From positions 7,022-71,021 of the forward strand of contig JBMHBT010000013.1 in the NCBI GenBank assembly GCA_049890275.1: a DNA stretch of 64,000 bases. The letters are read 5' to 3'. The position numbers were made by a program, and so were the translations under genes. Source of the stretch: Coraliomargaritaceae bacterium. GTDB taxonomy: Bacteria > Verrucomicrobiota > Verrucomicrobiia > Opitutales > Coraliomargaritaceae. Below, piece after piece: positions 11,339 through 41,903 of the stretch. The first letter of the stretch is position 1; the number at the start of each line of letters is the position of its first letter. Under the pieces are notes generated by a model. The model saw nothing but the letters and a program-made list of their open reading frames with translations, had not been told where the DNA came from and made no database searches.

Positions 11339-12028
11339 ATGACGAAATACGGCGCAGAATTCTTGGGAACATTTTGGCTGGTTCTTGGTGGGTGCGGTAG
11401 TGCGGTTTTGGCCGCTTCGTTCCCAGACTTAGGTATCGGTCTTCTGGGCGTTTCACTGGCCTTTGGCTTCACTGTCCTGACTATGGCCTTCGCCATCGGG
11501 CATATATCCGGATGTCACCTCAATCCGGCAGTTTCTTTGGGTCTTTGGGCCGGCGGCCGTTTCCCAGCAAAAGAGCTTATTCCGTATATCGTTGCGCAAA
11601 TATTGGGCGGGGTCGCTGCCGGCGGTGTACTCTATCTTATTGCCAGCGGCAAAGCAGACTTTGATTTGTCCGCAGGTTTTGCCGCAAATGGCTACGGAGC
11701 GCATTCGCCGGATGGGTATAGTTTGTCGGCTGCTTTGATAACGGAAGTAATGATGACCATGGTGTTCCTGTTCGTTATTCTTGGGGCTACTGACAAGAGA
11801 GCACCAGAGGGTTTCGCGTCGATAGCAATCGGGTTGTGCCTGACTCTCATCCACCTAATTAGTATCCCGGTGACGAATACCTCAGTGAATCCCGCACGTA
11901 GTACAGGCGTTGCCGTCTATGTGGGTGATTGGGCAGTTGCGCAACTTTGGCTTTTCTGGGTGGCTCCCATTATTGCCGGTATACTCGGCGCAGTGACGTA
12001 CCGCCTTATTGGGTGCGAAAAGGACTGA
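11339..12028 (+). CDS. aqpZ: Aquaporin Z
   Basis: 229 aa with two NPA boxes (HLNPAVS, VNPARS) and an N-terminus typical of AqpZ ([20 protein letters not shown]). AAGGAG Shine-Dalgarno sequence upstream. Confidence 0.95.
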
Positions 12029-12102
12029 AACGATTACTTCCTCGTCTCGAATGAATACAATTGCACGGATCAGTGCAGCGCTAGGTAGTGAAAGTCAGAA
12101 TC

Positions 12103-15100
12103 TTATCGCAGGCGGATGAGGAGATCTTTGCTGTCCACCTGATCACCGGCCTGAACTTCGACGGCATCGACGACGCCATCTGTCAGTGCGTAGACGGTGG
12201 TCTGCATCTTCATGGCTTCGAGGACGCAGAGCTTTTCCTTCTTCTTGACCTGCTGGCCGACGGTGACGGATACGCTGCTGACCATGGCAGGGATGGGGGC
12301 ACCGACTTGTTTGTTATCGGCGGGATCGGCTTTGGCTCGGCGTCGGGATTCCGTTTTAACCGAGCGGTCGGTGACGACGCATTCGCGGGCGCGTCCGTTG
12401 AGCTCGAAGGTAAGGGTGCGCTGGCCGTCCTCGTTTGGCTCGGAGACGTAGATGAGCTTGATGATGAGTGTCTTGCCCTGCTCGATCTCAACGGTGATCT
12501 CCTCGCCGGGCTGAAGGCCGTAGAAGAAGGCGGGGGTGGGGAGCACGCGGGCGTGGCCGTATTGTTTGACGTATTTGTCGAGGTCGGTGAAGACCTGCGG
12601 GTACATCAGGTAGGAATAGAGGTCATCGTCGTTGATTGGGCGGTTGAACTTTTCCGCGAGTTCCGTGCGGGTGGATTCGACATCGATTTTTTCGGCGTGT
12701 GCGCCGGGGCGTCCGCGAAGTGGTTTGCGATCGCCGAGGACGGTCTTCTGCACGGCTTTGGGCCAGCCGCCGACGGGTTGTCCAAGGCCGCCGGAGAGCA
12801 TGTCGACAACGGATTCAGGGAAGGCGGTGCCGGGCTCAAGGTTGACCAGGTCGGCGGGTTCTACGCCCTTGGTGAGGAGGAACATGGCGAGATCGCCGAC
12901 GACTTTTGAGGAAGGGGTGACTTTGACGATGTCGCCGAGGAGGAGGTTGACCTCGTGGTAGTAGCGGACGACTTCGGGCCAGCGGGAACCGAGGCCGAGG
13001 GCGCGGGCCTGCTCGCGCAGGTTGGTGTACTGGCCGCCGGGCATCTCGTGGGTGTAGACTTCGGCGCTGCCGAACTTTGGGCTGGTGTCGAAGGGCCCGT
13101 AGAATTGGCGGACGGCCTCCCAGTAGATGGAGAGTTCGTTGAGGAAGGCGAGGTCAAGGCCGGTGTCGCGCGGGTTGGAGCGGAGGGCGTTGACGATGGA
13201 GTTGAGGTTGGGCTGTGAAGTGAGGCCGGAGAGGGATGCGGTGGCCAGATCTACGGCGTCCACCCCGGCTTCTGCGGCCTTGATCACGGAAGCGCCGGCG
13301 ATGCCGGAAGAGTCGTGGGTGTGGAAGTGGACGGGCAGGCCGGTCTCCTGGCGGAGGGCCTTGACCAGTTTGTAGACGGCGTGCGGGGTGCAGAGGCCGG
13401 ACATGTCCTTGAGAGCTAGGATATGGGCGCCCATGCGCTCTAGTTCCTTCGCCATCTCTACGTAGTAAGTGAGGGTGTACTTGTCGCGCTTGGTGTCGAG
13501 GATGTCGCCGGTGTAGCAAAGAGTGGCTTCGCAGACGGAGTTGGTCCGTGTGCGGATGGCGTCCATCGCCACCTTGAGGTTGGGCAGGTAGTTGAGGGAG
13601 TCGAAGACGCGGAAGATATCCATGCCGCTCTCGGCGGAGTGCTGGATGAATCCGCGGATGACGTTGTCGGGGTAGTTGGAGTAGCCGACCCCGTTGGCTC
13701 CGCGCAGGAGCATTTGGAAGCAAATGTTGGGGATGCGCTCCCGCAGACGCCGGAGGCGCTTGAAGGGGTTCTCGTGGAGGAAGCGCATGGAGGTGTCGAA
13801 GGTGGCTCCGCCCCAGCACTCGAGGGAGTAGAGATCGGCCGCGCGATGGGCGATGGCGTCGGCCACCTTGAGTTGGTCGTAGCTGCGCATGCGGGCCGCA
13901 AGGAGCGACTGGTGGGCGTCCCGCATGGTGGTATCGGTCACGAGGAGCCGCTTCTGGCGGCGCGTCCACTGGGCAAATTTTTCTGGGCCGTGCTTGTCCA
14001 GGTAGTTCTTTGTGCCTTCGGGCAGGGTCGCGGTGTGGTCGTGCCCGGGCACGATGACGGGCAGATCCATGGCGGGCACGGGGCGTCCCTTGACCTGGTC
14101 GTTGCCGTTGACGATGGTCTCGCCGAGGAGGTTGAGCAGCTTGGTCGCGCGGTCGCGGCGTCGTTTGAATTGAAAGAGGCCTTTCGTCGTATCGATCAGA
14201 GTGGTAGTGGCCTGTCCGGACTTGAAGATCTGGTGGCTGACGACGTTTTCAATGAAGGGGATATTGGTCTTGACGCCCCGTATGCGCATTTCGCTGAGGG
14301 CGCGCTCCATCCGCTGGATGGCCAGCTCGAAGTTGCTGGCGGAGGCGGTGAGCTTGACCAGGAGGGAGTCGTAGTAGGGGGTGATGACGGCACCGGTGTC
14401 GCCCATGGCGCCGTCGAGACGGATGCCGAAACCGGCGGCGCTGCGGTAGTTGACGATCTTGCCGTAGTCGGGTGCGAAGTTCTTCTCGGGGTCTTCGGTG
14501 GTGATGCGTGCCTGGATGGCGACCCCGTTGCGGGGGATGTCTTCCTGGGCGGGGATGCCGATCTCTTTGCCGTGGAGGCTGTGTCCCTGGGCGATGAGGA
14601 TCTGGCTGCGGACGATGTCGAGGCCGGTGATGACCTCGGTGACGGTGTGCTCGACCTGGATACGGGGGTTCATCTCGATGAAGAACCATTCGTGGGTGTC
14701 GAGGTCGTAGAGAAATTCGACGGTGCCTGCGTTGTAGTAGCCGATGGATTTTGCGATCTGCACGGCGGCCTGGCAGAGGTCGTTGCGGACGTTGTCGGGC
14801 AGGCCGATGGAGGGGGCGATTTCGATGACCTTCTGGTGGCGGCGCTGGACGGAGCAGTCGCGTTCGTGGAGGTGGACGACGTTGCCCTGCTTGTCACCAA
14901 GGATTTGCACCTCGATGTGTTTGGCGCGCTCGATGTAGCGCTCGAGGAAGACGGCGGAGTTGCCGAAGGCGCGCTGGGCCTCGCCCTGGGCTTCTTCGAG
15001 GAAGTGCTTTAGGTCCTTGGGGTCCTTGACTACGCGCATGCCGCGGCCACCGCCGCCAAAGGCTGCCTTGATGATGAGGGGAAAGCCGATCTTCTTGGCG

Positions 15101-15552
15101 ATTTTCAGGGCCTTGGCTGGATCGGAGACAGGATCCTGTGTGCCGGGCAGGGTGGGGACTTTTGCTTGGTCGGCGATTTTGCGGGCCTCGATCTTGTCGC
15201 CCATCCGGGCGAGCAGTTCGGAACTGGGGCCGACAAAAGTGATGCCATTGGCTTCGCAGGCATTGGCAAAGGCGGCGTTTTCCGAAAGGAAGCCATAGCC
15301 GGGGTGGATCAGGTCGACATTGTGGTCCTTGGCCAGATTGATGACGCTATCTATGTCGAGGTATGCGGCGACGGGGCCTTTGCCCTCGCCTACGAGATAG
15401 GACTCATCGGCCTTGAACCGGTGAACGCCGAAGCGGTCTTCATTGGCATAAACCGCCACAGTTCGGCAACTGAGCTCCGTCGCGCTTCGAAAGATTCGGA
15501 CAGCAATTTCGCTGCGGTTGGCGGCAAGTAGTTTTAGAGGTTTATTCTGCAT
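12103..15552 (-). CDS. pyc: Pyruvate carboxylase (single-chain: biotin carboxylase + carboxyltransferase + biotinyl domain)
   Basis: 1149 aa with an N-terminal ATP-grasp biotin carboxylase domain, a central HMGL-like carboxyltransferase domain (HFHTHDSSG) and a C-terminal biotinylation motif (EAMKMQT). Confidence 0.95.
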   Translation of the reverse strand: MQNKPLKLLAANRSEIAVRIFRSATELSCRTVAVYANEDRFGVHRFKADESYLVGEGKGPVAAYLDIDSVINLAKDHNVDLIHPGYGFLSENAAFANACEANGITFVGPSSELLARMGDKIEARKIADQAKVPTLPGTQDPVSDPAKALKIAKKIGFPLIIKAAFGGGGRGMRVVKDPKDLKHFLEEAQGEAQRAFGNSAVFLERYIERAKHIEVQILGDKQGNVVHLHERDCSVQRRHQKVIEIAPSIGLPDNVRNDLCQAAVQIAKSIGYYNAGTVEFLYDLDTHEWFFIEMNPRIQVEHTVTEVITGLDIVRSQILIAQGHSLHGKEIGIPAQEDIPRNGVAIQARITTEDPEKNFAPDYGKIVNYRSAAGFGIRLDGAMGDTGAVITPYYDSLLVKLTASASNFELAIQRMERALSEMRIRGVKTNIPFIENVVSHQIFKSGQATTTLIDTTKGLFQFKRRRDRATKLLNLLGETIVNGNDQVKGRPVPAMDLPVIVPGHDHTATLPEGTKNYLDKHGPEKFAQWTRRQKRLLVTDTTMRDAHQSLLAARMRSYDQLKVADAIAHRAADLYSLECWGGATFDTSMRFLHENPFKRLRRLRERIPNICFQMLLRGANGVGYSNYPDNVIRGFIQHSAESGMDIFRVFDSLNYLPNLKVAMDAIRTRTNSVCEATLCYTGDILDTKRDKYTLTYYVEMAKELERMGAHILALKDMSGLCTPHAVYKLVKALRQETGLPVHFHTHDSSGIAGASVIKAAEAGVDAVDLATASLSGLTSQPNLNSIVNALRSNPRDTGLDLAFLNELSIYWEAVRQFYGPFDTSPKFGSAEVYTHEMPGGQYTNLREQARALGLGSRWPEVVRYYHEVNLLLGDIVKVTPSSKVVGDLAMFLLTKGVEPADLVNLEPGTAFPESVVDMLSGGLGQPVGGWPKAVQKTVLGDRKPLRGRPGAHAEKIDVESTRTELAEKFNRPINDDDLYSYLMYPQVFTDLDKYVKQYGHARVLPTPAFFYGLQPGEEITVEIEQGKTLIIKLIYVSEPNEDGQRTLTFELNGRARECVVTDRSVKTESRRRAKADPADNKQVGAPIPAMVSSVSVTVGQQVKKKEKLCVLEAMKMQTTVYALTDGVVDAVEVQAGDQVDSKDLLIRLR

Positions 15553-15645
15553 CGGCTGTAGATTGTAGAAAAAGTGCGTGACTGGCTAAGTCAAGGTAGT
15601 GTGTCTTTACTTCTGAATAAAGGCTTAGGATTCTGGGTAAGGTTT

Positions 15646-16704
15646 TTAAGAATCTATCTTCTGGCCGACAGGTAGTTGACCGTTGCCGGAGAGAAGAATA
15701 GCGAGGGCCCGAGTAGCGGGAAAATGGGCACAAACAATCATAATAATGACGGTAAAGGGGACGCAAAGAAACATCCCAGGAATGCCCCATACAGCTCCCC
15801 AAAGGCCGAGGGAAAAGAGTATGATCATTGGGCTAAGATTGAGTTTACTGCCCATCAACCTAGGTTCAACTAAACTGCCGATGGCAAATTGTACGAGTGA
15901 AATCGCGACGATTACGAGAACGAAAGGGCGGAGCGTATCAAACTGGACGAGTGCGAGTGCGGAGGGGAAGAGGGTGGCAATAATGGATCCGATCGTGGGG
16001 ATGAAATTGAGGAGGAAGATGAGGACGGCCCAGAAGCTGGCAAAGTCAAGCCCGATGAGGCTCATGACGAGGTAGCTGAGCAGTCCGGTGGCGGCACTGG
16101 TTAAGACCTTGATCCCGATGTAGAGGCGTACGTCTTTGCCGATGTGGCCGATTAAGTGGAAGACTTCACGTTGGCGGAGACGTTCGGGGAAGAGGGCCTT
16201 GATCTTGGGTTGAAAGGTGCGCTGTTCGGCCAAAAGAAAGAGTAAGTAGACGATAATGATTCCGGTGCGACTGAGTAGATTGCGCACGGTTTTTCCAAAG
16301 TCCTGCAGATAAGTACTGAGGTCGATCTTGTTGATAAATTCATGGAGCTTCGGGGCATCCTCTGCCGCTACTCCAAAGAGTGAATAGATGTCGAAAATGC
16401 GTGTCTCTAGGTTTTGTTGATAGGTCGGTGCCACGTCGATCACACTTTTAATGTTTTCAGTAACGAGTTGGACTAGAAGGCTGATCGAGGCAAAAATGAT
16501 GCCCAGCGCGAGAACCATAGAGAGCCATTTGGGTACATGCTGATCGCGGACAGTAAGGGCACTGATGGTGTGAGCGAGAATACTGATTAAGTACGCGACG
16601 ACTCCGGCAATGACTATGGGTTGGATGAGGGCTTGTCCGATGTGAAGCAGGTAGAAGACTGTCACCACGATAAAGACGGATAATGCGGTGCTTTGTAGTT
16701 TCAT
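15646..16704 (-). CDS. AI-2E family transporter (PerM/UPF0118)
   Basis: 352-aa polytopic protein with a C-terminal conserved block typical of the family (FLLNFIPTIGSIIA ... GLWGAVWGIPGMFLCVPFT). Confidence 0.85.
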   Translation of the reverse strand: MKLQSTALSVFIVVTVFYLLHIGQALIQPIVIAGVVAYLISILAHTISALTVRDQHVPKWLSMVLALGIIFASISLLVQLVTENIKSVIDVAPTYQQNLETRIFDIYSLFGVAAEDAPKLHEFINKIDLSTYLQDFGKTVRNLLSRTGIIIVYLLFLLAEQRTFQPKIKALFPERLRQREVFHLIGHIGKDVRLYIGIKVLTSAATGLLSYLVMSLIGLDFASFWAVLIFLLNFIPTIGSIIATLFPSALALVQFDTLRPFVLVIVAISLVQFAIGSLVEPRLMGSKLNLSPMIILFSLGLWGAVWGIPGMFLCVPFTVIIMIVCAHFPATRALAILLSGNGQLPVGQKIDS

Positions 16705-31897: not shown

Positions 31898-33787
<1,890 letters not shown>

Positions 33788-34056
33788 TGTGAATGTTAGT
33801 ATGATGGAGACTATCAGTTTGTCTCAAGGCAACTAGATTCGATGATCCAGTGGGCAGAGGTAATCCGGAGAAGTTCGAGACAAAGTGCGGAGGCGAGGAT
33901 AGTGCGGTTTAAGGGATCCGGCTAAAGTAGGGGGAGATCGTAGGCAGTGGCCGCGCTATCCAGACGAACGGGAGGGCGCGAAGTTTTCTTCAATTCCTCT
34001 CTATAGAGTATATTTTGGTCTGTCGGAGGATATGTTTGATTCACTCTAAATTCCAC

Positions 34057-37000
34057 CTAGGGCAGGAAGGTGGCAGTCGGGCTGTTTGCGGTCTGCTTCA
34101 GTCCGGCAAGGTCACCTTGGTAGAGGAGATGACCGCCGGATTCGCCGCCTTCAGGCCCAATCTCGACAATATGATCTGCTTCGGCGATACAATCGATATG
34201 ATGCTCAATCAGGACGACGGTGTGCCCCTGGTCGACGAGGCGGTGGAGGAGGTGGTTGAGGCGTTCGACATCGCTGCTGTGCAGACCAATGGAAGGTTCT
34301 TCGAGGAGGTAGAGGTTGCCCGCACCGAGGTTGTATTGCCGCTCCTTGAGGGAAGGTAGGCCCTTAGCCAGTTCGCTTACCAGCTTGAGGCGCTGAGCTT
34401 CTCCACCGGAGAGAGTCGGTGAGTATTGGCCTAGGGTGATATAGCCTAGACCGGTGTCGACCATCAGTTGCATGAGGGCAGACAGTCGTGTGTGGAAGCT
34501 GAAGAATTCAGCCGCTTCTTCGAAGCTCATAGCGAGGACATCAGCAATGTTTTTGCCGTTCCATTGGAGAGCGTCGAGTTCTTCTCCGTAGCGACGGCCG
34601 CTGCAATCCTCGCAGGTAACATGAGTGTCGGGCATGAAGTTCATCTCCAGTTTGATGCGCCCGGCACCCTTGCAGGTCTCGCAACGGCCTCCTTTGGTGT
34701 TGAAGGAGAAAGTGCTGGCACTGTAGCCCCGAAAGCGAGCCTCGGGGAGAGAGGCGTAGATTTCCCGGATGCGGTCAAAGGCGCCGATATAGGTCGCTGG
34801 TGTGGAGCGAGGGGTCTTACCGATCGGTGACTGGTCGACTTCAATAACCTTACGTACTGCGTTGGCGCCGTGGAGTGCCGTAAAGGTGGGTGCAAGGTGC
34901 TTATTTTCGGTTAGGTCTTTTGCATTTAGTTTGGGGGATTTTAAACGAACGGCCGCCTCGACTAAGGGGTGGAGAAGATCACGGATGAGAGTGGATTTAC
35001 CGGAGCCGGAGACACCGCAGATAAGATTGAGGCGCTGGAGAGGCAAGTGTAGGTCAAAGTTCTTGAGGTTGCGGAGTTGTGCGCCGCGAAGAACGATCCA
35101 GTGTTCGTGAGTGGTTTTGCGTCGCGCCTGCCAGGCTGGAGGAAGCGTTCGGTATTGGCCACGAAGCGGATGGTGCATTTCTTGTCGCAGGTATTGGCCG
35201 GTGAGGGACTTTTTATTTTTTCGTAGTTGTGCGAGTGTTCCGCTGGCGACGACGTGCCCGCCGTGGATGCCAGCACCCGGGCCAAGATCAACGATGCGGT
35301 CCGCCTGCCGCATGGTTTCGAGATTGTGTTCGACGACGACAAGCGTGTTGCCCCGGTCGCGGAGTTGGAGGAGGGAGTCGATGAGCTTGGCATTGTCGCG
35401 GGCATGGAGTCCAATAGAGGGCTCGTCGAGGACATAGAGGACGCCAGAAAGGTTGGTGCCGAGCTGTGCAGCGAGGCGGATACGTTGGGCTTCGCCTCCG
35501 GAGAGGGTGGCTGTGGCGCGGTCGAGACCAAGATAGCCGAGCCCGACGGTGTCCATGAAGCGCATACGGGACTCAATTTCGGGTACGAGTTCTTCGAGGA
35601 CGGGGCGGGAGCGGGTATTGGTTTTGAGTTTGGCGAGGGTTTGGAGAAGCTCTCCGGGTGTCTGGCAAAGCAGTTCAGGAAGGCTGATTGGCTCCATGTT
35701 TTTGAGGGGTAGCTTAACTGCACAACTGAGCGGGTTTAGACGCGCGCCCTGACAATCCGGACACAGGTCGCCGTCTTCAAATTCGTCGAGGTGATCCATC
35801 GTGCTTTCTTCCTCGGTGTTCATCCATTCGAAGAGTTGTCCGTAGCCACGACAGGTTGCGCACCAACCGCGGGGACTGTTCCAGGAGAAGTGCTTTGGGT
35901 CGAGTTCGGGGTACGCTTGTCCAGTGGCGGGGTCGGTGCGGGTGGTAGAAAGGCGGGCGATGATTTTATCAGGTAGGGCGAGGAGAAAGGCCGAGCCTTT
36001 ACCGAGTTTGAGGGCTGTTTGGAGGTGGGTGCGGAGTTGTTTGGGCGGTGTTTTTCCGGAGATGTTGCTGACGACAAGGTCAATATCGTGTTCCCGGTAG
36101 CGATCGAGGCGATGGAAGCTCTCAATCGCTACGAGTTGACCATCGATACGGAGAGCATCATAGCCGCGTTCTCGAGCCCAGTCTGCCAGCGGTTGGTGGT
36201 GTCCTTTGCGCCCTCGGATGATCGGAGCACAGAGTTTCACAGTGCGGCTGGGTTTTTCCGCCAGAAGGGCGCGCAGTCGTTTGAAAACAGCGGTCTCGCT
36301 CTGGCTGATGAGTGGATCACCGGTGATGGGAGAGTGAGGTATTCCGATTCGAGCGTAGAGGAGGCGGAGGTACTGGGCGACTTCAGTGATCGTAGCCACG
36401 GTGGATTTGCGGGTGCCTTTAGTCATGCGTTGCTCGATTGCGACAGTAGGGGCGATGCCTTGCAGTTCGTCGACTTCGGCGCGGGGCATTTGTTCGACAA
36501 ATTGCCGGGCATAGGCAGACATCGACTCCATAAAGCGTCGTTGGCCTTCGGCAAAGAGGATATCGAAGGCGAGGGAGGACTTCCCGGATCCCGAAACTCC
36601 GGTGAGTACGGTCAGGGCGTTTCGCTGGATCGAGAGATCAATGTTTTGCAGGTTGTGCTCGCGCGCGCCGCAGATACTTAGTGCGTTAATTGTTTTGTTG
36701 GACTTATAGGGCGCAGGTGCTTCAGCAACGGTGATCGAGAGATCTTCTGCAAAAGCTTCGCTTAGGTAGGGTGCTGTCTGGCTGTTTCCTTGGGCAATGG
36801 TTTCGGGGGTACCTTGAGCGACAATTTGCCCCCCGTCAGAACCGGCTTCGGGGCCGACCTCGATGATCCAGTCGCATACCCGAAGCACATCGAGATTGTG
36901 TTCGATAACGATGAGTGAGTGCCCGGCATCGACGAGAGATTGGAATACGCGAATCAGACGTTTGACATCGGAGCGGTGGAGTCCGGTGGTGGGTTCATCA

Positions 37001-39510
37001 ATGAGGATGAGGGCGTGAGCGGAATGATCGGTCACTTTGCCTAGATAGCGGATGAGCTTGAGGCGTTGGGACTCTCCGCCTGAAAGGGTGTTGAGTGGTT
37101 GGCCAAGCTTTAGGTAGCCGAGACCCACGTCAGAGAGAGGTTGAAGACAGCGGACAATTTCTTTCCGGTCGGAGAAGAAGAGGAGGGCTTCATCAATATC
37201 AAGATCGAGTATGTCAGCGACGGTTCGCCCGTTGTATTCGACTTGCAGGACCTCCTCTTTGAAGCGTCGACCTTCGCAGGTTTGGCAGGGAACATAGACA
37301 TCGGAGACGAACTGCATTTCAATGCGCTCATGGCCGAGGCCGGAGCAGTCTGGGCAGCGTCCGTTACCTCCATTGAAGGAGAAGTGCCCGGCTTCGAGTC
37401 CTGCGGCACGGGCATTTTCTAGCCGGGCAAATTGTTTACGGATAGAATCCCAAGCGCCGGAGAACAGGGCTGGGTTAGAGCGGGGAGTTTTGCCGGCGGG
37501 ACTTTGGTCGATACGGACGATTTCGGAGAGGGGAAGTTCGGACTCAATGTCGCGGATTTCAGCTGGGTCATCGGCGGGCTGTCCTTTTTGGGCGAGTAGA
37601 TTTTGATAGAGGACTTGGTCGAGAAGGGTGCTTTTTCCCGATCCGGATACTCCGCTGAGGCAGACGAATCGCTGTTGTGGGATGTGCAGATCGAGGTCGT
37701 GAATATTGTGTTTGGAGGCTCCGTAGATAGAGAGGCGGGGGGCATCTTGTGTCGGGCGGCGCTTGACCGGAGGTTCGATTTGCTCGCGCCCAGAGAGGAA
37801 GCGCCCGGTTAGGGTGTCGGCTTTGAGTAGTTTGCGTGCAGTACCGGAGAAACAGAGTTGGCCGCCCTGTGCGCCCGGTTTAGGGCCGATCTCGACGAGG
37901 TGGTCCGCCGCTCGCATAACGGATTCGTCATGTTCGACGACAACAACGGTATTTCCTTGATCGGCGAGACGGCGAAGAATGCGAATGAGGCGGTCGAGAT
38001 CTCGTGGATGGAGACCGACCGAGGGTTCGTCGAGAACGAAGAGTGTATCGACCAGGGAGGAACCGAGGCATGAAGTGAGGTTGACCCGCATGGTTTCACC
38101 TCCGCTGAGGGTGCGGGAACTACGATCGATTGTTAGGTAGCCAAGTCCGACTTGGTCGAGGAAATCGAGTCGGTTGCGAATGCCGATGAGGGCGGAGTTA
38201 TCGTCAGAAGGAAGGAGTTCGAGTAGTTGGGAGACGCTTTTTCGGTAAAGATCGGGGAGGCTGTTGCCTTTCCACTTCCAGTGGCGGGCTTCCGGTTGAA
38301 GGCGGTCTCCTTGGCAGTCGGGACATTTTGTATAGTTGCGGAATTTCGAGAGAAAGACGCGAACATGCATCTTGTAGACTTTGGACTCGAGCCATTTGAA
38401 GAAGCGGTTCACTCCATACCATTGATGATTGCCTTCTTCATAGTCGGTTTCGCCTTCGAGGATGAAGTGGGTTTCTTCAGGTGTTAGTTCCGACCAGGGT
38501 ACATGGGTGCGGATCTTGTGCTTGCGGGCGGCGCGGCGGAGTTCGCGGAGGCACTCGCTGTAGACTTGACCTTGAAAGGCGCGGATGGCGCCTTGTTCGA
38601 TGGAGAGGGAGTGGTCGGGAATAACAAGGCGGGGGTCGATTTCAATGATACGACCAAAACCGCGGCATTGGGGGCAGGCACCGATAGGTGAATTGTAGGA
38701 GAAAAGGGCTGGAGTGGCTTGGCGGTAGGATTTGCCATCGACGGTCGAGCGCAGTCCGTGCGTGAAGGCACAGAGGTCCTTGCCTTTGGCGTCGAGAATT
38801 TCGACCCGGCCCTTGCCGAGGGTAAAAGCGTTTTCGAGTGCCTCGATAGTGCGGGAACGGTTTTCTGAACGCAGAGTGATGCGATCCTGCAGGACGAGGA
38901 GTGTCGCGTTTTCGCGGAGGCTTCCGGTTTCGATTTCCTCTAGGCGAAGAACGTGGTTGTCGAGTGCCACTCGGGCGAAGCCTTGGGAACGAAGGGAGTC
39001 GAGGATTTCAATCCAGTGGATCTTGGCCGGTTTGAGGATGGGGAAGGCGATCAGACAGGTGCGATTCGGGTAGTTTTCGAGGAGTTGATTCCAGACGCTT
39101 CGTGGAGAGTCGTCGGTGATGGGTGCTCCATTTGCCGGGTCGTGGAGTGTCGCATGGTTGGCAAACCAGACTTTGAAGTAATCGCAGAGTTCAGTGAGTG
39201 TTCCAACGGTAGATCGGGAGGTGCGAACGGTGTTCGACTGCTGGATGGCAATGGAGGGGCGGATATTCTCAATGCGGTCGACCTTCGGGCGGTCCAGTAA
39301 TTCAAGGAATTGTCGGGTGTAGGGTGAAAAGGTTTCAACGTAGCGGCGTTGGCCTTCTGCATGGAGGGTCTCAAAGACAAGGGAGGATTTACCGGCGCCG
39401 CTGGGACCGGTGACTACGATGAGGCGACCGAGTGGGAGATCGAGGTCGAAGTCCTTGAGGTTGTTTTGCCGGACGCCACGGAGGCGGATGAAGTCAGATT
39501 TTTTTGACAT
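34057..39510 (-). CDS. Tandem UvrA-UvrA fusion protein (two UvrA-like units, four ABC ATPase modules)
   Basis: 1817-aa uninterrupted ORF. Walker A motifs near aa 35, 620, 971 and 1500; four LSGGE signatures; paired CxxC zinc modules in each unit. The second unit starts near aa 941 (nt ~36690). Confidence 0.9.
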   Translation of the reverse strand: MSKKSDFIRLRGVRQNNLKDFDLDLPLGRLIVVTGPSGAGKSSLVFETLHAEGQRRYVETFSPYTRQFLELLDRPKVDRIENIRPSIAIQQSNTVRTSRSTVGTLTELCDYFKVWFANHATLHDPANGAPITDDSPRSVWNQLLENYPNRTCLIAFPILKPAKIHWIEILDSLRSQGFARVALDNHVLRLEEIETGSLRENATLLVLQDRITLRSENRSRTIEALENAFTLGKGRVEILDAKGKDLCAFTHGLRSTVDGKSYRQATPALFSYNSPIGACPQCRGFGRIIEIDPRLVIPDHSLSIEQGAIRAFQGQVYSECLRELRRAARKHKIRTHVPWSELTPEETHFILEGETDYEEGNHQWYGVNRFFKWLESKVYKMHVRVFLSKFRNYTKCPDCQGDRLQPEARHWKWKGNSLPDLYRKSVSQLLELLPSDDNSALIGIRNRLDFLDQVGLGYLTIDRSSRTLSGGETMRVNLTSCLGSSLVDTLFVLDEPSVGLHPRDLDRLIRILRRLADQGNTVVVVEHDESVMRAADHLVEIGPKPGAQGGQLCFSGTARKLLKADTLTGRFLSGREQIEPPVKRRPTQDAPRLSIYGASKHNIHDLDLHIPQQRFVCLSGVSGSGKSTLLDQVLYQNLLAQKGQPADDPAEIRDIESELPLSEIVRIDQSPAGKTPRSNPALFSGAWDSIRKQFARLENARAAGLEAGHFSFNGGNGRCPDCSGLGHERIEMQFVSDVYVPCQTCEGRRFKEEVLQVEYNGRTVADILDLDIDEALLFFSDRKEIVRCLQPLSDVGLGYLKLGQPLNTLSGGESQRLKLIRYLGKVTDHSAHALILIDEPTTGLHRSDVKRLIRVFQSLVDAGHSLIVIEHNLDVLRVCDWIIEVGPEAGSDGGQIVAQGTPETIAQGNSQTAPYLSEAFAEDLSITVAEAPAPYKSNKTINALSICGAREHNLQNIDLSIQRNALTVLTGVSGSGKSSLAFDILFAEGQRRFMESMSAYARQFVEQMPRAEVDELQGIAPTVAIEQRMTKGTRKSTVATITEVAQYLRLLYARIGIPHSPITGDPLISQSETAVFKRLRALLAEKPSRTVKLCAPIIRGRKGHHQPLADWARERGYDALRIDGQLVAIESFHRLDRYREHDIDLVVSNISGKTPPKQLRTHLQTALKLGKGSAFLLALPDKIIARLSTTRTDPATGQAYPELDPKHFSWNSPRGWCATCRGYGQLFEWMNTEEESTMDHLDEFEDGDLCPDCQGARLNPLSCAVKLPLKNMEPISLPELLCQTPGELLQTLAKLKTNTRSRPVLEELVPEIESRMRFMDTVGLGYLGLDRATATLSGGEAQRIRLAAQLGTNLSGVLYVLDEPSIGLHARDNAKLIDSLLQLRDRGNTLVVVEHNLETMRQADRIVDLGPGAGIHGGHVVASGTLAQLRKNKKSLTGQYLRQEMHHPLRGQYRTLPPAWQARRKTTHEHWIVLRGAQLRNLKNFDLHLPLQRLNLICGVSGSGKSTLIRDLLHPLVEAAVRLKSPKLNAKDLTENKHLAPTFTALHGANAVRKVIEVDQSPIGKTPRSTPATYIGAFDRIREIYASLPEARFRGYSASTFSFNTKGGRCETCKGAGRIKLEMNFMPDTHVTCEDCSGRRYGEELDALQWNGKNIADVLAMSFEEAAEFFSFHTRLSALMQLMVDTGLGYITLGQYSPTLSGGEAQRLKLVSELAKGLPSLKERQYNLGAGNLYLLEEPSIGLHSSDVERLNHLLHRLVDQGHTVVLIEHHIDCIAEADHIVEIGPEGGESGGHLLYQGDLAGLKQTANSPTATFLP

Positions 39511-39569
39511 GAATGCTTGAAGAACGAACGTTCTATCGAGCAGGCACTTACCTAAAAATTACTTGATTT

Positions 39570-41903
39570 TTAGGAGGGACTTAGCGGGTTGGATTCCTTT
39601 GCGGTTGCTATGGCTTTGTGGAGGCGACTTCGGAGGTGTGTGCGGCGTACTTCAGTTTTGTTGTTACGAATGGCCATGGAGTAAGCCTCGGTCGAACCGA
39701 TGAGGAAAACCTTGCGCCGAGCGCGGGTAATGCCGGTGTAGACAAGGTTACGCTGGAGCATCATGAAGTGTTGCTTGAGGAGGGGTATGAGGACGACGGG
39801 GTATTCGCTGCCTTGGCTTTTGTGGATGCTAATAGCATAAGCGTGACGGACTTCGGAGAGTTCTGATTTTGTATACTCTACATTTTCTCCGTCAAAATCG
39901 ATTGAGATGGAGGATGCGTCAGGGGCGATGCCAACAATAATCCCAGTGTCTCCATTGAAGATATTTTTATCATAGTTATTACGGGTCTGTATAACTTTAT
40001 CACCGATACGAAAGATGGCTGCTCCCAGGTTGAGTTCGGCGGGCAGGGGTTTGCGTGTCTTTTCTCGAAAGTGTACCTGACGTACCGCTTGCGTGCCGGC
40101 TTTGGCTGCCAGTCGTTCTTGCGCTTTCGCGCGGTTATTGAGGGCTTCCTGTAGTGATGCATTGAGTGCCGAGATTCCGGCGGTTCCGCGGTGCATAGGG
40201 CAGAGCACTTGAATGTCTCGAATCGGGTCTATGCCATACGTTTTTGGTAAAAATTCAGCGGAGAGATAGCGAATGGCATCGGCTGTTTGCTCCGCATCAG
40301 CCGCTTCAATAAAGGTACAATCCTGTTCCGGGTCGAGTCGTCGAAGGCTGTCAATACAGTAGGGCGGTACGGCTTCGCCCTTGAGGATACCGTGTGCGGT
40401 CGTGACGATACCGCTGGTCTCTCCTTGGCGGAATATAGTATCCAGACAAGAGACTCGAGCGGGCGGCGCGGTCATGAGGTCACTGAGGATGTTGCCCGGG
40501 CCAACAGAGGGGAGCTGGTCAGAATCACCAACCAGTAGGAGGCAGGCCGTTGCAGGGATGGCTTCGGCCAGACTGTTGGCCAGTCGTGTATCGAGCATAC
40601 TGGCTTCGTCGACAATAATTACATCGCAGGGCAGGGGATTATCCGCGTCGTGGATAAATGTACGGGTGGCTCCATCGTACTTGAGTAAACGATGGAGTGT
40701 GCTGGCCGGTGCTCCGGCTGCTTCTGAGAGGCGCTGGGCGGCGCGACCGGTGGGGGAGGCAAGGAGAATACGTGCTCTCTTTGCTTTCAGGATGTCAACT
40801 AGTGAGCGCAGGATAGTGGTCTTTCCAGTTCCCGGGCCGCCGGTAATAATGGAGACTTTCGCTGAGAGGGTTCGCTTGAGGGCATCGGCCTGTTTTGGAG
40901 CAAATGTAAATCCGGCCCTCTGCTGGGCCCACTCGATGGCCGATTCAGTCTTAATAGAAGGGAGAGTGGAAGGAGTTTGGTGGATCGTAATGAGCCGCTG
41001 GGCGATTCTCTTTTCAGCTCCTGCCATTGGGGGACGTTGGCAGGCTGGACCGAGGGAGGACTGGTCGGTCTCGATTGCCTCCAGAGAGTAGAGGCGCTTT
41101 TCTTTGATCAGTCGTCGGATACGTTCTTCGATCAGGTGAGGCTGGAGTCCGAGTAGTTCGGTACTGGTTTCGACCAGAATGGTTTGGAGGCCAATGGTGT
41201 GGCCGTCTTCTTCCAGCTTGCGCAGGGTGTGCAGGATGCCCGCATCGATTCGTTCTTTTGAGTTGGTTGGGAAGCCGAGGTTCAGCGCTAGTTTATCAGC
41301 CGTTTTAAAACCGATATTTTCAATGTCTTCAGCGAGCCGGTACGGGGCGTCTTGTAGGACACGTTTAGCCCCGTTGCCATATTTTTTGACTAGACGTACA
41401 CACTGTGCGGGGGTGACTCCGTAGGTTTGTAGAAAAATAATAATATCGCGTACCGCGACTTGTTGATCCCAAGCAGATTTGATGGCTTTAGCGCGGGTTT
41501 TTCCGATCCCCGGGATTTCATGGAGTCGACCGGAGTCACTACTAATGATTGCAAGCGTATCTGCACCGAAGTAATCGACGATTTTGCTCGCGTAGGATTT
41601 TCCAATACCGGGAACCATGCCGCTACCGAGGTATTTTCGGATACCGTGTACGGAAGCAGGTAAGCGAGAGGTAAAGTTACTTATTTTGAATTGATCGCCA
41701 TGTGTTGGGTGGCGTGTCCATTGGCCTGTAAGTTGAAGTGTTTCTCCACATTGTACCCCCGGAAGATTACCCAGGATCGTTGTTGGTTGGCTGTTTTTCT
41801 CAACGCTGAGTTCGGCAACACAGTAAGCGTTTTCTTCATTGCTAAAGATGATTCTTTCAAGGACTCCGGTTAGGGATTCTTGGTTATTCGCTTCTGTATG
41901 CAT
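39570..41903 (-). CDS. recD2: RecD2-type SF1B ATP-dependent DNA helicase
   Basis: 777 aa with an N-terminal OB/HhH region (VPGIGKSYASKIV; IPGIGKTRAKAI), Walker A ITGGPGTGKTT, DEASM, and a C-terminal SH3-like insert plus the YAISIHKSQGSEYP motif. Confidence 0.88.
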   Translation of the reverse strand: MHTEANNQESLTGVLERIIFSNEENAYCVAELSVEKNSQPTTILGNLPGVQCGETLQLTGQWTRHPTHGDQFKISNFTSRLPASVHGIRKYLGSGMVPGIGKSYASKIVDYFGADTLAIISSDSGRLHEIPGIGKTRAKAIKSAWDQQVAVRDIIIFLQTYGVTPAQCVRLVKKYGNGAKRVLQDAPYRLAEDIENIGFKTADKLALNLGFPTNSKERIDAGILHTLRKLEEDGHTIGLQTILVETSTELLGLQPHLIEERIRRLIKEKRLYSLEAIETDQSSLGPACQRPPMAGAEKRIAQRLITIHQTPSTLPSIKTESAIEWAQQRAGFTFAPKQADALKRTLSAKVSIITGGPGTGKTTILRSLVDILKAKRARILLASPTGRAAQRLSEAAGAPASTLHRLLKYDGATRTFIHDADNPLPCDVIIVDEASMLDTRLANSLAEAIPATACLLLVGDSDQLPSVGPGNILSDLMTAPPARVSCLDTIFRQGETSGIVTTAHGILKGEAVPPYCIDSLRRLDPEQDCTFIEAADAEQTADAIRYLSAEFLPKTYGIDPIRDIQVLCPMHRGTAGISALNASLQEALNNRAKAQERLAAKAGTQAVRQVHFREKTRKPLPAELNLGAAIFRIGDKVIQTRNNYDKNIFNGDTGIIVGIAPDASSISIDFDGENVEYTKSELSEVRHAYAISIHKSQGSEYPVVLIPLLKQHFMMLQRNLVYTGITRARRKVFLIGSTEAYSMAIRNNKTEVRRTHLRSRLHKAIATAKESNPLSPS

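Follow-up and report, generated by a model that had tools for sequence, protein, structure and literature searches.

A double-length UvrA with two unequal units on a single chain in a Coraliomargaritaceae bacterium

The double uvrA gene and its two units

The 64,000-nucleotide stretch of Coraliomargaritaceae DNA analyzed here (contig JBMHBT010000013.1; called the window below) carries on its minus strand, at 34057..39510, an open reading frame (ORF) that starts with ATG and encodes a protein of 1817 amino acids followed by a stop codon. As the initial annotation had proposed, this is one uninterrupted ORF in which two UvrA units, with four ATP-binding cassette (ABC) modules between them, are arranged in tandem on a single chain, and the second unit begins at residue 941 (INALSICGAREHNL, nucleotide 36690). 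The arrangement is kept as one ORF in many genomes. The whole protein scores 1881 bits with the NCBIfam equivalog model NF001503 (cut-off 1147 bits) and 1856 bits with TIGR00630 (cut-off 729.8 bits), about twice the value of a single-copy UvrA. An identical protein (P0001), encoded on a 230-kb contig of a metagenome-assembled genome (MAG) of a Coraliomargaritaceae bacterium (Verrucomicrobiota), bears the name "excinuclease ABC subunit UvrA" at NCBI. In terms of genome annotation the gene is ordinary, the name UvrA having already been applied to it.

As the window derives from a MAG, it might be argued that an error in sequencing or assembly merged two adjacent uvrA genes at the junction. Several observations speak against such an error. 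The DNA of the junction, scanned in frame, contains no stop codon and no ATG, GTG or TTG, and there is therefore no internal start there. The orthologue clusters of the window protein, more than 119 of them at 59-86% identity, are continuous across the junction without exception. Complete single ORFs occur in 72 independent genomes, among them closed chromosomes and the genomes of isolates of Cerasicoccus and Limnohabitans. Furthermore, the linker between the two units carries a conserved motif of its own, which is described below. Because full-length single-ORF relatives are found in these independent genomes, an artefact is effectively excluded.

Unit 1 (aa 1-920; 36751..39510, on the minus strand, as are all parts of the gene given below) is a complete class-I-like UvrA except for zinc module 1. 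It aligns end to end with the UvrA of T. maritima (3PIH), residues 8-916 corresponding to residues 4-912 with a score of 739 bits. When the unit is mapped on E. coli UvrA, the UvrB-binding region comprises 134 residues and the insertion domain 104 residues. The UvrB-binding domain (aa 135-240; 38791..39108) is recognized by the Pfam model PF17760 UvrA_inter with 59.5 bits (cut-off 23.3). The insertion (DNA-binding) domain (38326..38664) is situated between CPQC 279 and CPDC 396, two CxxC motifs that are 117 residues apart, and residues 292-357 match Pfam PF17755 UvrA_DNA-bind with 49.7 bits. The C-terminal zinc finger and β-hairpin (37276..37356) contain CPDC 719, CQTC 742 and the hairpin phenylalanine in EMQFVSD.

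Unit 2 (aa 945-1817; 34060..36678) is a UvrA unit without the insertion domain, so the earlier description of two complete units is incorrect for this half. Its alignment to the C. thermocellum UvrA (9GXK) consists of two blocks, in which residues 6-287 and 291-876 of the unit correspond to residues 28-306 and 409-956 of the chain. The alignment skips chain residues 307-408, which means that the insertion domain of about 100 residues is missing. What is left of zinc module 2 is a knuckle (35752..35862) in which CATC 1217 and CPDC 1250 are separated by 33 residues, as compared to 117 in unit 1. None of the four cysteines of this knuckle varies among 41 sequences that represent two clades. The profile-based delimitation of the halves that the initial annotation had suggested finds UvrA_inter in both units and UvrA_DNA-bind in unit 1 only, with no match to the latter in unit 2. 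The UvrB-binding domain of unit 2 (aa 1081-1175; 35986..36270) scores 69.1 bits with PF17760 and spans 136 residues when mapped on E. coli UvrA, an E. coli-like length as in unit 1; the segment expected to bind UvrB is indeed of canonical length in both units. The C-terminal zinc finger and β-hairpin (34603..34683) contain CETC 1610, CEDC 1633 and the sequence EMNFMPD. The CxxC modules that had been noticed in pairs in each half are located at 279/396, 719/742, 1217/1250 and 1610/1633. They represent two modules per half (Zn2 and Zn3), and the third module of the canonical three is absent.

The AlphaFold2 model of unit 2 is a confident one, with a predicted local distance difference test score (pLDDT) of 86.9 and a predicted template modeling score (pTM) of 0.77, and the remnant Zn2 loop is disordered in it. 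The best Foldseek matches of this model are class I UvrAs (3uwx, E-value 2.9e-87; 3zqj, TM-score 0.82), whereas class II UvrAs are matched more weakly (E-values of about 1e-65 versus about 1e-87 for class I). The two units of the window protein are 35-39% identical to each other, which is below the identity of either of them to canonical UvrAs.

Each of the four nucleotide-binding domains (NBDs) contains a Walker A motif, a Walker B motif, a signature motif and an H-loop. The Walker A motifs were established by a motif scan and by their conservation in orthologues. They are found at residue 35 in NBD-I of unit 1 (GPSGAGKS; 39385..39408), at residue 620 in NBD-II of unit 1 (GVSGSGKS; 37630..37653), at residue 971 in NBD-I of unit 2 (GVSGSGKS; 36577..36600) and at residue 1499 in NBD-II of unit 2 (GVSGSGKS; 34993..35016), the last of which had been given as 1500. 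The motif scan places the signatures, also as listed previously, at residues 468 (LSGGETMR), 809 (LSGGESQR), 1336 and 1700 (both LSGGEAQR), and the H-loops at residues 523, 867, 1391 and 1766.

Conservation was assessed in 119 Opitutales-type orthologues with 59-86% identity to the window protein. The Walker A lysine, the LSGGE sequence and the H-loop histidine are conserved in all four NBDs (the lysine of the first Walker A motif in 119 of 119), as are the cysteines of Zn2 and Zn3 in each unit. The mean identity of the orthologues to the window protein is 71.4% for unit 2 and 68.6% for unit 1, unit 2 having the higher value in 117 of 118 comparisons. The least conserved domains are the two UvrB-binding domains, with 44% and 55% identity. 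In UvrA, residues Y62, Q65 and F66 insert into the DNA, and the hairpin phenylalanine (F755 of Ct-UvrA) is also involved (PMC12796330). The equivalents of these wedge residues (Y..QF) are present in both units as PYTRQF and AYARQF, and both hairpin sequences given above contain the equivalent of F755.

Two motifs deviate from the canonical sequence in a lineage-specific manner. Signature I of unit 1 (38086..38109) is LSGGETMR, where the canonical form is LSGGE[AS]QR, and the Walker B motif in NBD-II of unit 2 (34294..34314) is LYLLEEP, with Glu in place of Asp. A distal ATPase site is composed of ATP-binding domain II together with signature domain I (PMC6486640), and by this definition the two changes fall in the two distal sites. 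The TMR sequence is present in 106 of the 119 Opitutales orthologues and is not common to the whole of family A, the wider group of double UvrAs described in the next section. The [IL]LEEP form of Walker B occurs in 118 of the 119 orthologues and in just 5 of 46 members of family A. The initial annotation had supposed that fusion could let the halves specialize. The loss of the insertion domain from unit 2 and the changes in both distal sites support this, and the two halves have specialized.

The linker between the units (aa 921-944; 36679..36750) is variable in both sequence and length. Its mean identity to the orthologues is 27%, compared to about 70% for the units, and its length ranges from 17 to more than 65 residues across family A. 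Such weak conservation is consistent with the role of a tether. Within the linker, the sequence VAEAPAPY (aa 928-935; 36706..36729) matches the motif [AV]AE-x4-[YF], which is found in 97 of 114 orthologues and in 1.9% of shuffled linkers. The motif recurs in the distant family-A members P0161, P0147, P0125, P0172 and P0145. It may represent a docking peptide.

Known UvrA types and the spread of the double architecture

Comparison with canonical class I UvrAs (those of E. coli, G. stearothermophilus 2R6F, T. maritima 3PIH, M. tuberculosis 3ZQJ and C. thermocellum 9GXK) shows that both window units share with them the ABC core of NBD-I and NBD-II with the signature domains, the UvrB-binding domain, zinc module 2 and the C-terminal zinc-finger hairpin. 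The insertion domain is matched by unit 1 only. The canonical protein is a homodimer, whereas the window protein has two units on one chain, and the zinc module 1 cysteines of the canonical protein are present in neither unit. Both halves score 694-739 bits against the solved class I UvrAs. Taken alone, they reach 936 and 926 bits with TIGR00630, above its cut-off.

The published scheme divides UvrAs into classes I, IIa and IIb (PMC9328131), and no scheme going beyond these classes was found in the literature. Class II proteins (D. radiodurans UvrA2, 2VF7; Ecm16, 7SH1; DrrC) are also double ABC ATPases of the UvrA type, and those of class IIa, like both window units, are without the first zinc motif (PMC9328131). 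Class II UvrAs have no UvrB-binding domain and act outside nucleotide excision repair (NER) (PMC9328131, PMC9241694), whereas both window units have this domain. The scores of the window units against class II proteins are also lower, 522-558 bits versus 694-739 bits for class I. Membership in class II, as defined by the absence of the UvrB-binding domain, is ruled out by its presence in both units.

Double-length UvrAs are already represented in the databases. NCBIfam curates a model of 1809 positions, NF001885/PRK00635 "excinuclease ABC subunit A", which was presumably built from chlamydial sequences. The window protein aligns with this model collinearly through the junction (aa 8-1098 to model positions 6-1093), but scores 1211 bits versus a cut-off of 3054 bits and is not a member of that equivalog. 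Five other family-A representatives score about 1000 bits, and none of them reaches the cut-off. The chlamydial protein CT333, annotated as excinuclease ABC subunit A, is of double length like the window protein; the uvrA gene that encodes it in C. trachomatis, ct333, has 5361 bp for 1786 amino acids and tolerates transposon insertions (PMC6686042).

Unit 1 was used to search 1.84 billion cluster representatives (50% identity), and the best 150 were examined. Nearly all of them are double-length UvrAs. Their layouts, obtained by mapping on E. coli UvrA, can be written with B for the UvrB-binding domain and I for the insertion domain, lower case denoting absence and a slash separating the two units. 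The layout of the window protein, BI/Bi, is found in 41 of these sequences, BI/BI in 34 and bI/bI in 29. The bI/bI proteins are about 1600 residues long, contain no UvrB-binding domain in either unit and are class-II-like. Bi/BI, BI/bI, BI/bi and Bi/Bi are rarer.

Double UvrAs have arisen more than once. In a neighbor-joining tree of 240 units with the E. coli and T. maritima UvrAs, at least three double-UvrA families can be distinguished, and in each of them the unit 1s and the unit 2s form separate clades. Family A, to which the window protein belongs, has 46 representatives (32 BI/Bi, 11 BI/BI and 3 BI/bi). In 60 bootstrap replicates (F>=0.95) its unit-1 group is recovered in 82% and its unit-2 group in 60%. 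As all unit 1s of family A cluster together and all unit 2s likewise, the tree fits a single old fusion at the origin of this family, independent fusions in the other families and repeated losses of the second insertion domain. The window units sit in these same two clades, and the window protein shares with the other complete plus insertion-less doubles of family A the order of domains and the loss of the insertion domain from unit 2; the linker motif is common to several members. Only the Opitutales lineage shows LSGGETMR in unit 1, LLEEP in NBD-II of unit 2 and a zinc module 1 that has lost all its cysteines as lineage-specific changes, and other family-A members frequently retain a cysteine at the position of E. 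coli residue 253.

A scan of GTDB with one genome per species matched more than 600 stretches, of which the best 80, belonging to 78 loci, were analyzed. All 80 cover residues 1-1816 of the window protein. Complete single ORFs make up 72 of the 78 loci, and 64 have the BI/Bi layout. Among the best 80, the Verrucomicrobiota are represented by Opitutales, Puniceicoccaceae, the isolates Cerasicoccus maritimus and C. frondis, and Chthoniobacterales, and the Proteobacteria by Burkholderiales (including the isolate Limnohabitans sp. 2KL-17), Chromatiales, Steroidobacteraceae and other Gammaproteobacteria. Spirochaetaceae and Ca. Binatia are also present, and family-A members are further found in MAGs labeled Deltaproteobacteria or Bdellovibrionota. 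The trypanosomatid endosymbiont Ca. Kinetoplastibacterium crithidii, whose complete genome (CP064915.1) has 816,901 bp, encodes a double UvrA of 1809 residues with the layout of the window protein (P0174; locus L004, 10001-15430) near ruvCAB and mutL. For a reduced genome of 0.82 Mb, this gene occupies a striking share of the coding space.

Single-unit relatives of unit 1 were also considered. P0136, P0148 and P0245 were rejected as truncated doubles, P0251 is probably another, and P0225, with 1007 residues, may genuinely consist of a single unit. The 2403-residue protein P0105 contains an exact internal repeat of about 540 residues, which runs from NBD-II of unit 1 through the linker into the start of unit 2. 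An assembly duplication is the most likely explanation of this repeat, a partial triplication a possible one.

The rarity that the initial annotation had implied is not borne out, since doubles fill the top of the 1.84-billion search, occur in several phyla and in C. trachomatis, and have a model of their own in NF001885. Its statement that no functional characterization of a duplicated UvrA was known agrees with a full-text literature search, in which no study on the function of such a protein was found. A check against databases, which it had also proposed, showed an architecture that is already known and yielded no known function. Reviews presumably list duplicated UvrAs, and SEED presumably has "Excinuclease ABC subunit A, dimeric form" among its roles, although the literature searches confirmed neither. 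The architecture of the window protein is widespread and routinely annotated, and appears to be functionally uncharacterized.

Genomic neighborhood and upstream sequence

The upstream neighbor of the double uvrA gene, separated from it by a 59-bp gap, encodes a RecD2 helicase (39570..41903, minus strand; TIGR01448, 811 bits, cut-off 500). Directly downstream lies the gene of a GyrB/ParE-like protein of 629 residues (31898-33787, minus strand), a topoisomerase IV/gyrase B-type subunit. It scores well below every curated GyrB/ParE cut-off (417 bits versus 740 for NF004189); the protein is a type IIA topoisomerase B subunit of a divergent kind. The surroundings consist of ordinary chromosomal genes, including those of pyruvate carboxylase, Dxs, HflX, GlmS, RNase R and NuoL, and a gene of the uracil-DNA glycosylase (UDG) superfamily, a PEP-CTERM protein and a Wzy_C/TPR protein are also encoded nearby. 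None of the annotated neighbors indicates a biosynthetic or resistance gene context.

The neighborhood also bears on the idea that the double UvrA might be a component of the MADS anti-phage system. Such an idea could be based on PADLOC, where the protein matches mad3 with 476 bits over five stretches and mad8 with 175 bits. However, these profiles are short (374 and 314 positions) and describe an ABC/UvrA-like ATPase, and their matches recur from one NBD to the next over all four. With the UvrA equivalog models the protein scores far higher than with PADLOC. When three neighbors were run through PADLOC, RecD2 gave helicase-type matches and a faint match to mad8, and the other two gave nothing. 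Furthermore, the larger neighbors are annotated as housekeeping proteins by NCBIfam and Pfam, and the remaining mad genes were not seen in those contexts of relatives that were examined. Membership in MADS is effectively excluded, and the PADLOC matches reflect the shared ATPase fold. Judged by their profiles, mad3 and mad8 are themselves UvrA-like ABC ATPases, which is a link of homology and no evidence of defense at this locus.

In two contigs of the Coraliomargarita akajimensis type, a DPRP gene (photolyase-related, PF04244) is located two genes upstream of the double uvrA (L002, 1845-3383; L003, 7252-8790), and in L003 RecD2 is found four genes upstream of it. These contigs show a loose UV and DNA-repair neighborhood around the double uvrA that is absent from the window itself.

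No promoter or terminator around the gene rises above the expectation from shuffled sequence. A perfect GAAC-N4-GTTC palindrome, AGAACGTTCGTTCT, is located on the minus strand at 39522-39533, 11 nucleotides before the uvrA start codon. It resembles the LexA (Cheo) box of the Gram-positive type and has a background rate of 0.005 per 300 nucleotides. The nearest relative (L005) has the box only in a degenerate form, GAACGTTCGGTT, and the upstream regions of the gene in 62 other loci do not contain it; for this reason an SOS box before uvrA is not used as evidence. In fifteen marine loci of the Opitutia type (L026, L030, L031, L033, L035-L038, L043, L049, L055, L056, L068, L077 and L082), an identical sequence, CAACAGGGGTTC, precedes the double uvrA by 66-147 nucleotides, as counted from the conserved N-terminal motif. 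This sequence could represent either a regulatory element that has been conserved or a portion of an upstream gene. The G+C content of the window is higher at 12001-16000 and 34001-40000 (0.54-0.62 versus about 0.42-0.51 elsewhere), with a strong positive GC skew. These stretches coincide with two long minus-strand genes, those of pyruvate carboxylase and the double UvrA.

A tethered pair of UvrA units with a probable role in excision repair

Taken together, these results suggest that the window protein is a single-chain UvrA pseudo-dimer and probably the damage sensor of nucleotide excision repair in its organism. Canonical UvrA dimerizes through ATP-binding domain I (PMC12796330), and the stability of the dimer depends on the nucleotide state (PMC6486640). 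It can be envisaged that an ancestral uvrA gene was duplicated in tandem and then fused. The 1:1 pairing of units, which in the canonical protein is accomplished by ATP-dependent homodimerization, would now be secured by a flexible linker, about 25 residues long, and the tether would render the pairing independent of protein concentration. Both units appear to retain competent proximal and distal ATPase sites, the wedge residues, the zinc-finger hairpin and the UvrB-binding domain. With these DNA-sensing and UvrB-recruiting elements kept in both units, the protein would be expected to scan DNA, sense distortions and recruit UvrB as UvrA2 does. In the simplest view it would be a single-chain equivalent of UvrA2 that is still able to bind two UvrB molecules.

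The fusion would also have let the halves diverge. The insertion domains of UvrA hold the DNA as a clamp and, once damage has been recognized, move jointly with the UvrB-binding domain (PMC11985968). With the insertion (DNA-clamp) domain of unit 2 lost, the DNA groove would be clamped from one side only. As the UvrB-binding domain of unit 2 is then uncoupled from any insertion domain, the two UvrB-loading positions are probably not equivalent.

A housekeeping role is likely, considering that the layout is present in the 816,901-bp endosymbiont genome, that the uvrA of C. trachomatis is double, that the window gene lies in a housekeeping neighborhood with RecD2 and a topoisomerase B subunit and that DPRP and RecD2 genes are found near the double uvrA in contigs of the Coraliomargarita type. 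Several points weigh against the reading of the protein as a pseudo-dimer and NER sensor. With the stricter model NF001503, the halves taken alone score 947 and 940 bits, under the cut-off of 1147. Against canonical UvrAs they score about 700-740 bits, while canonical UvrAs score 1080-1290 bits among themselves. Alignments to the solved UvrAs show other residues in place of the zinc module 1 cysteines in each unit, and the neighbor-joining tree does not resolve the deep branches. Finally, a tblastn search with E. coli UvrB and UvrC gave no match in the window and 78 related loci (10-kb flanks, 1.61 Mb), and a second UvrA was found neither in the 64-kb window nor within 10 kb of the double gene in the 78 loci. 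This last point is uninformative, because uvrA, uvrB and uvrC are normally unlinked.

The same divergence of both halves from canonical UvrAs would fit a different role, in which the double UvrA coexists with a canonical UvrA and is not the main NER sensor. Specialized tasks of this kind have been proposed for UvrA2, DrrC and Ecm16, and might include the handling of particular lesions, the removal of drugs or intercalators, or stationary-phase mutagenesis. UvrA paralogues with roles outside NER are well documented (PMC9328131, PMC9241694), and the separate family of class-II-like doubles of about 1600 residues without UvrB-binding domains, with its 29 representatives, shows that double proteins of that type exist. 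The window protein differs from class II in having a UvrB-binding domain in each unit, each of its halves passes the TIGR00630 cut-off, and the predicted model of unit 2 resembles class I structures more closely than those of class II. Its neighbors include no biosynthetic or resistance genes. Moreover, the layout is kept in an endosymbiont of 0.82 Mb and the uvrA of C. trachomatis, a bacterium with a genome of about 1 Mb, is also double; redundant paralogues are unlikely at such genome sizes. An accessory function of the window protein is thus considered rather unlikely.

How the units pair is a further question. The sequence does not force them to pair within one molecule, and units of different molecules, unit 1 of one with unit 1 or unit 2 of another, might associate into dimers of doubles or open oligomers with at least four UvrA units. 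The wide variation of the linker length, from 17 to more than 65 residues, would be compatible with this, and the conserved linker motif could be an intermolecular docking peptide. On the other hand, the effective local concentration of tethered homologous domains strongly favors, as a general principle, their pairing within the chain. One insertion domain per chain, as found in 64 of the 78 genomes, is also explained most easily if unit 1 and unit 2 of the same chain form one functional pair. Pairing between molecules therefore seems quite improbable, and we infer that the two units pair within the chain.

The single-chain pseudo-dimer might go further in its asymmetry. It is conceivable, although on balance doubtful, that the protein is an obligately asymmetric sensor in which unit 1 clamps the DNA and offers a UvrB site gated by the insertion domain, while the site of unit 2 is ungated, so that a single UvrB would be loaded or the strand to be probed first would be fixed. 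In such a sensor the [AV]AE-x4-[YF] motif of the linker could serve as an extra docking element. For canonical UvrA, the choice between A2B2 and A2B1 stoichiometry, the choice of strand and the breaking of symmetry are still open (PMC11985968). If the asymmetric sensor were real, it would be a natural, hard-wired answer to the UvrA2B2/UvrA2B1 and strand-choice problem (PMC11985968).

Although canonical UvrA forms a homodimer that is symmetric, the repair complex that results from it is asymmetric. The occurrence of several independent fusions, together with the repeated loss of the insertion domain from unit 2, suggests that one DNA clamp per dimer suffices. A diverged covalent pair of UvrA units offers a ready tool for the questions of symmetry breaking and of the number of UvrB molecules (PMC11985968), because an ATPase site, a UvrB-binding domain or a DNA-contact element can be mutated in one half alone, which is impossible in a homodimer. 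The main interest of the double UvrA is that it may serve as such a natural asymmetric tool for studying the mechanism of UvrA.

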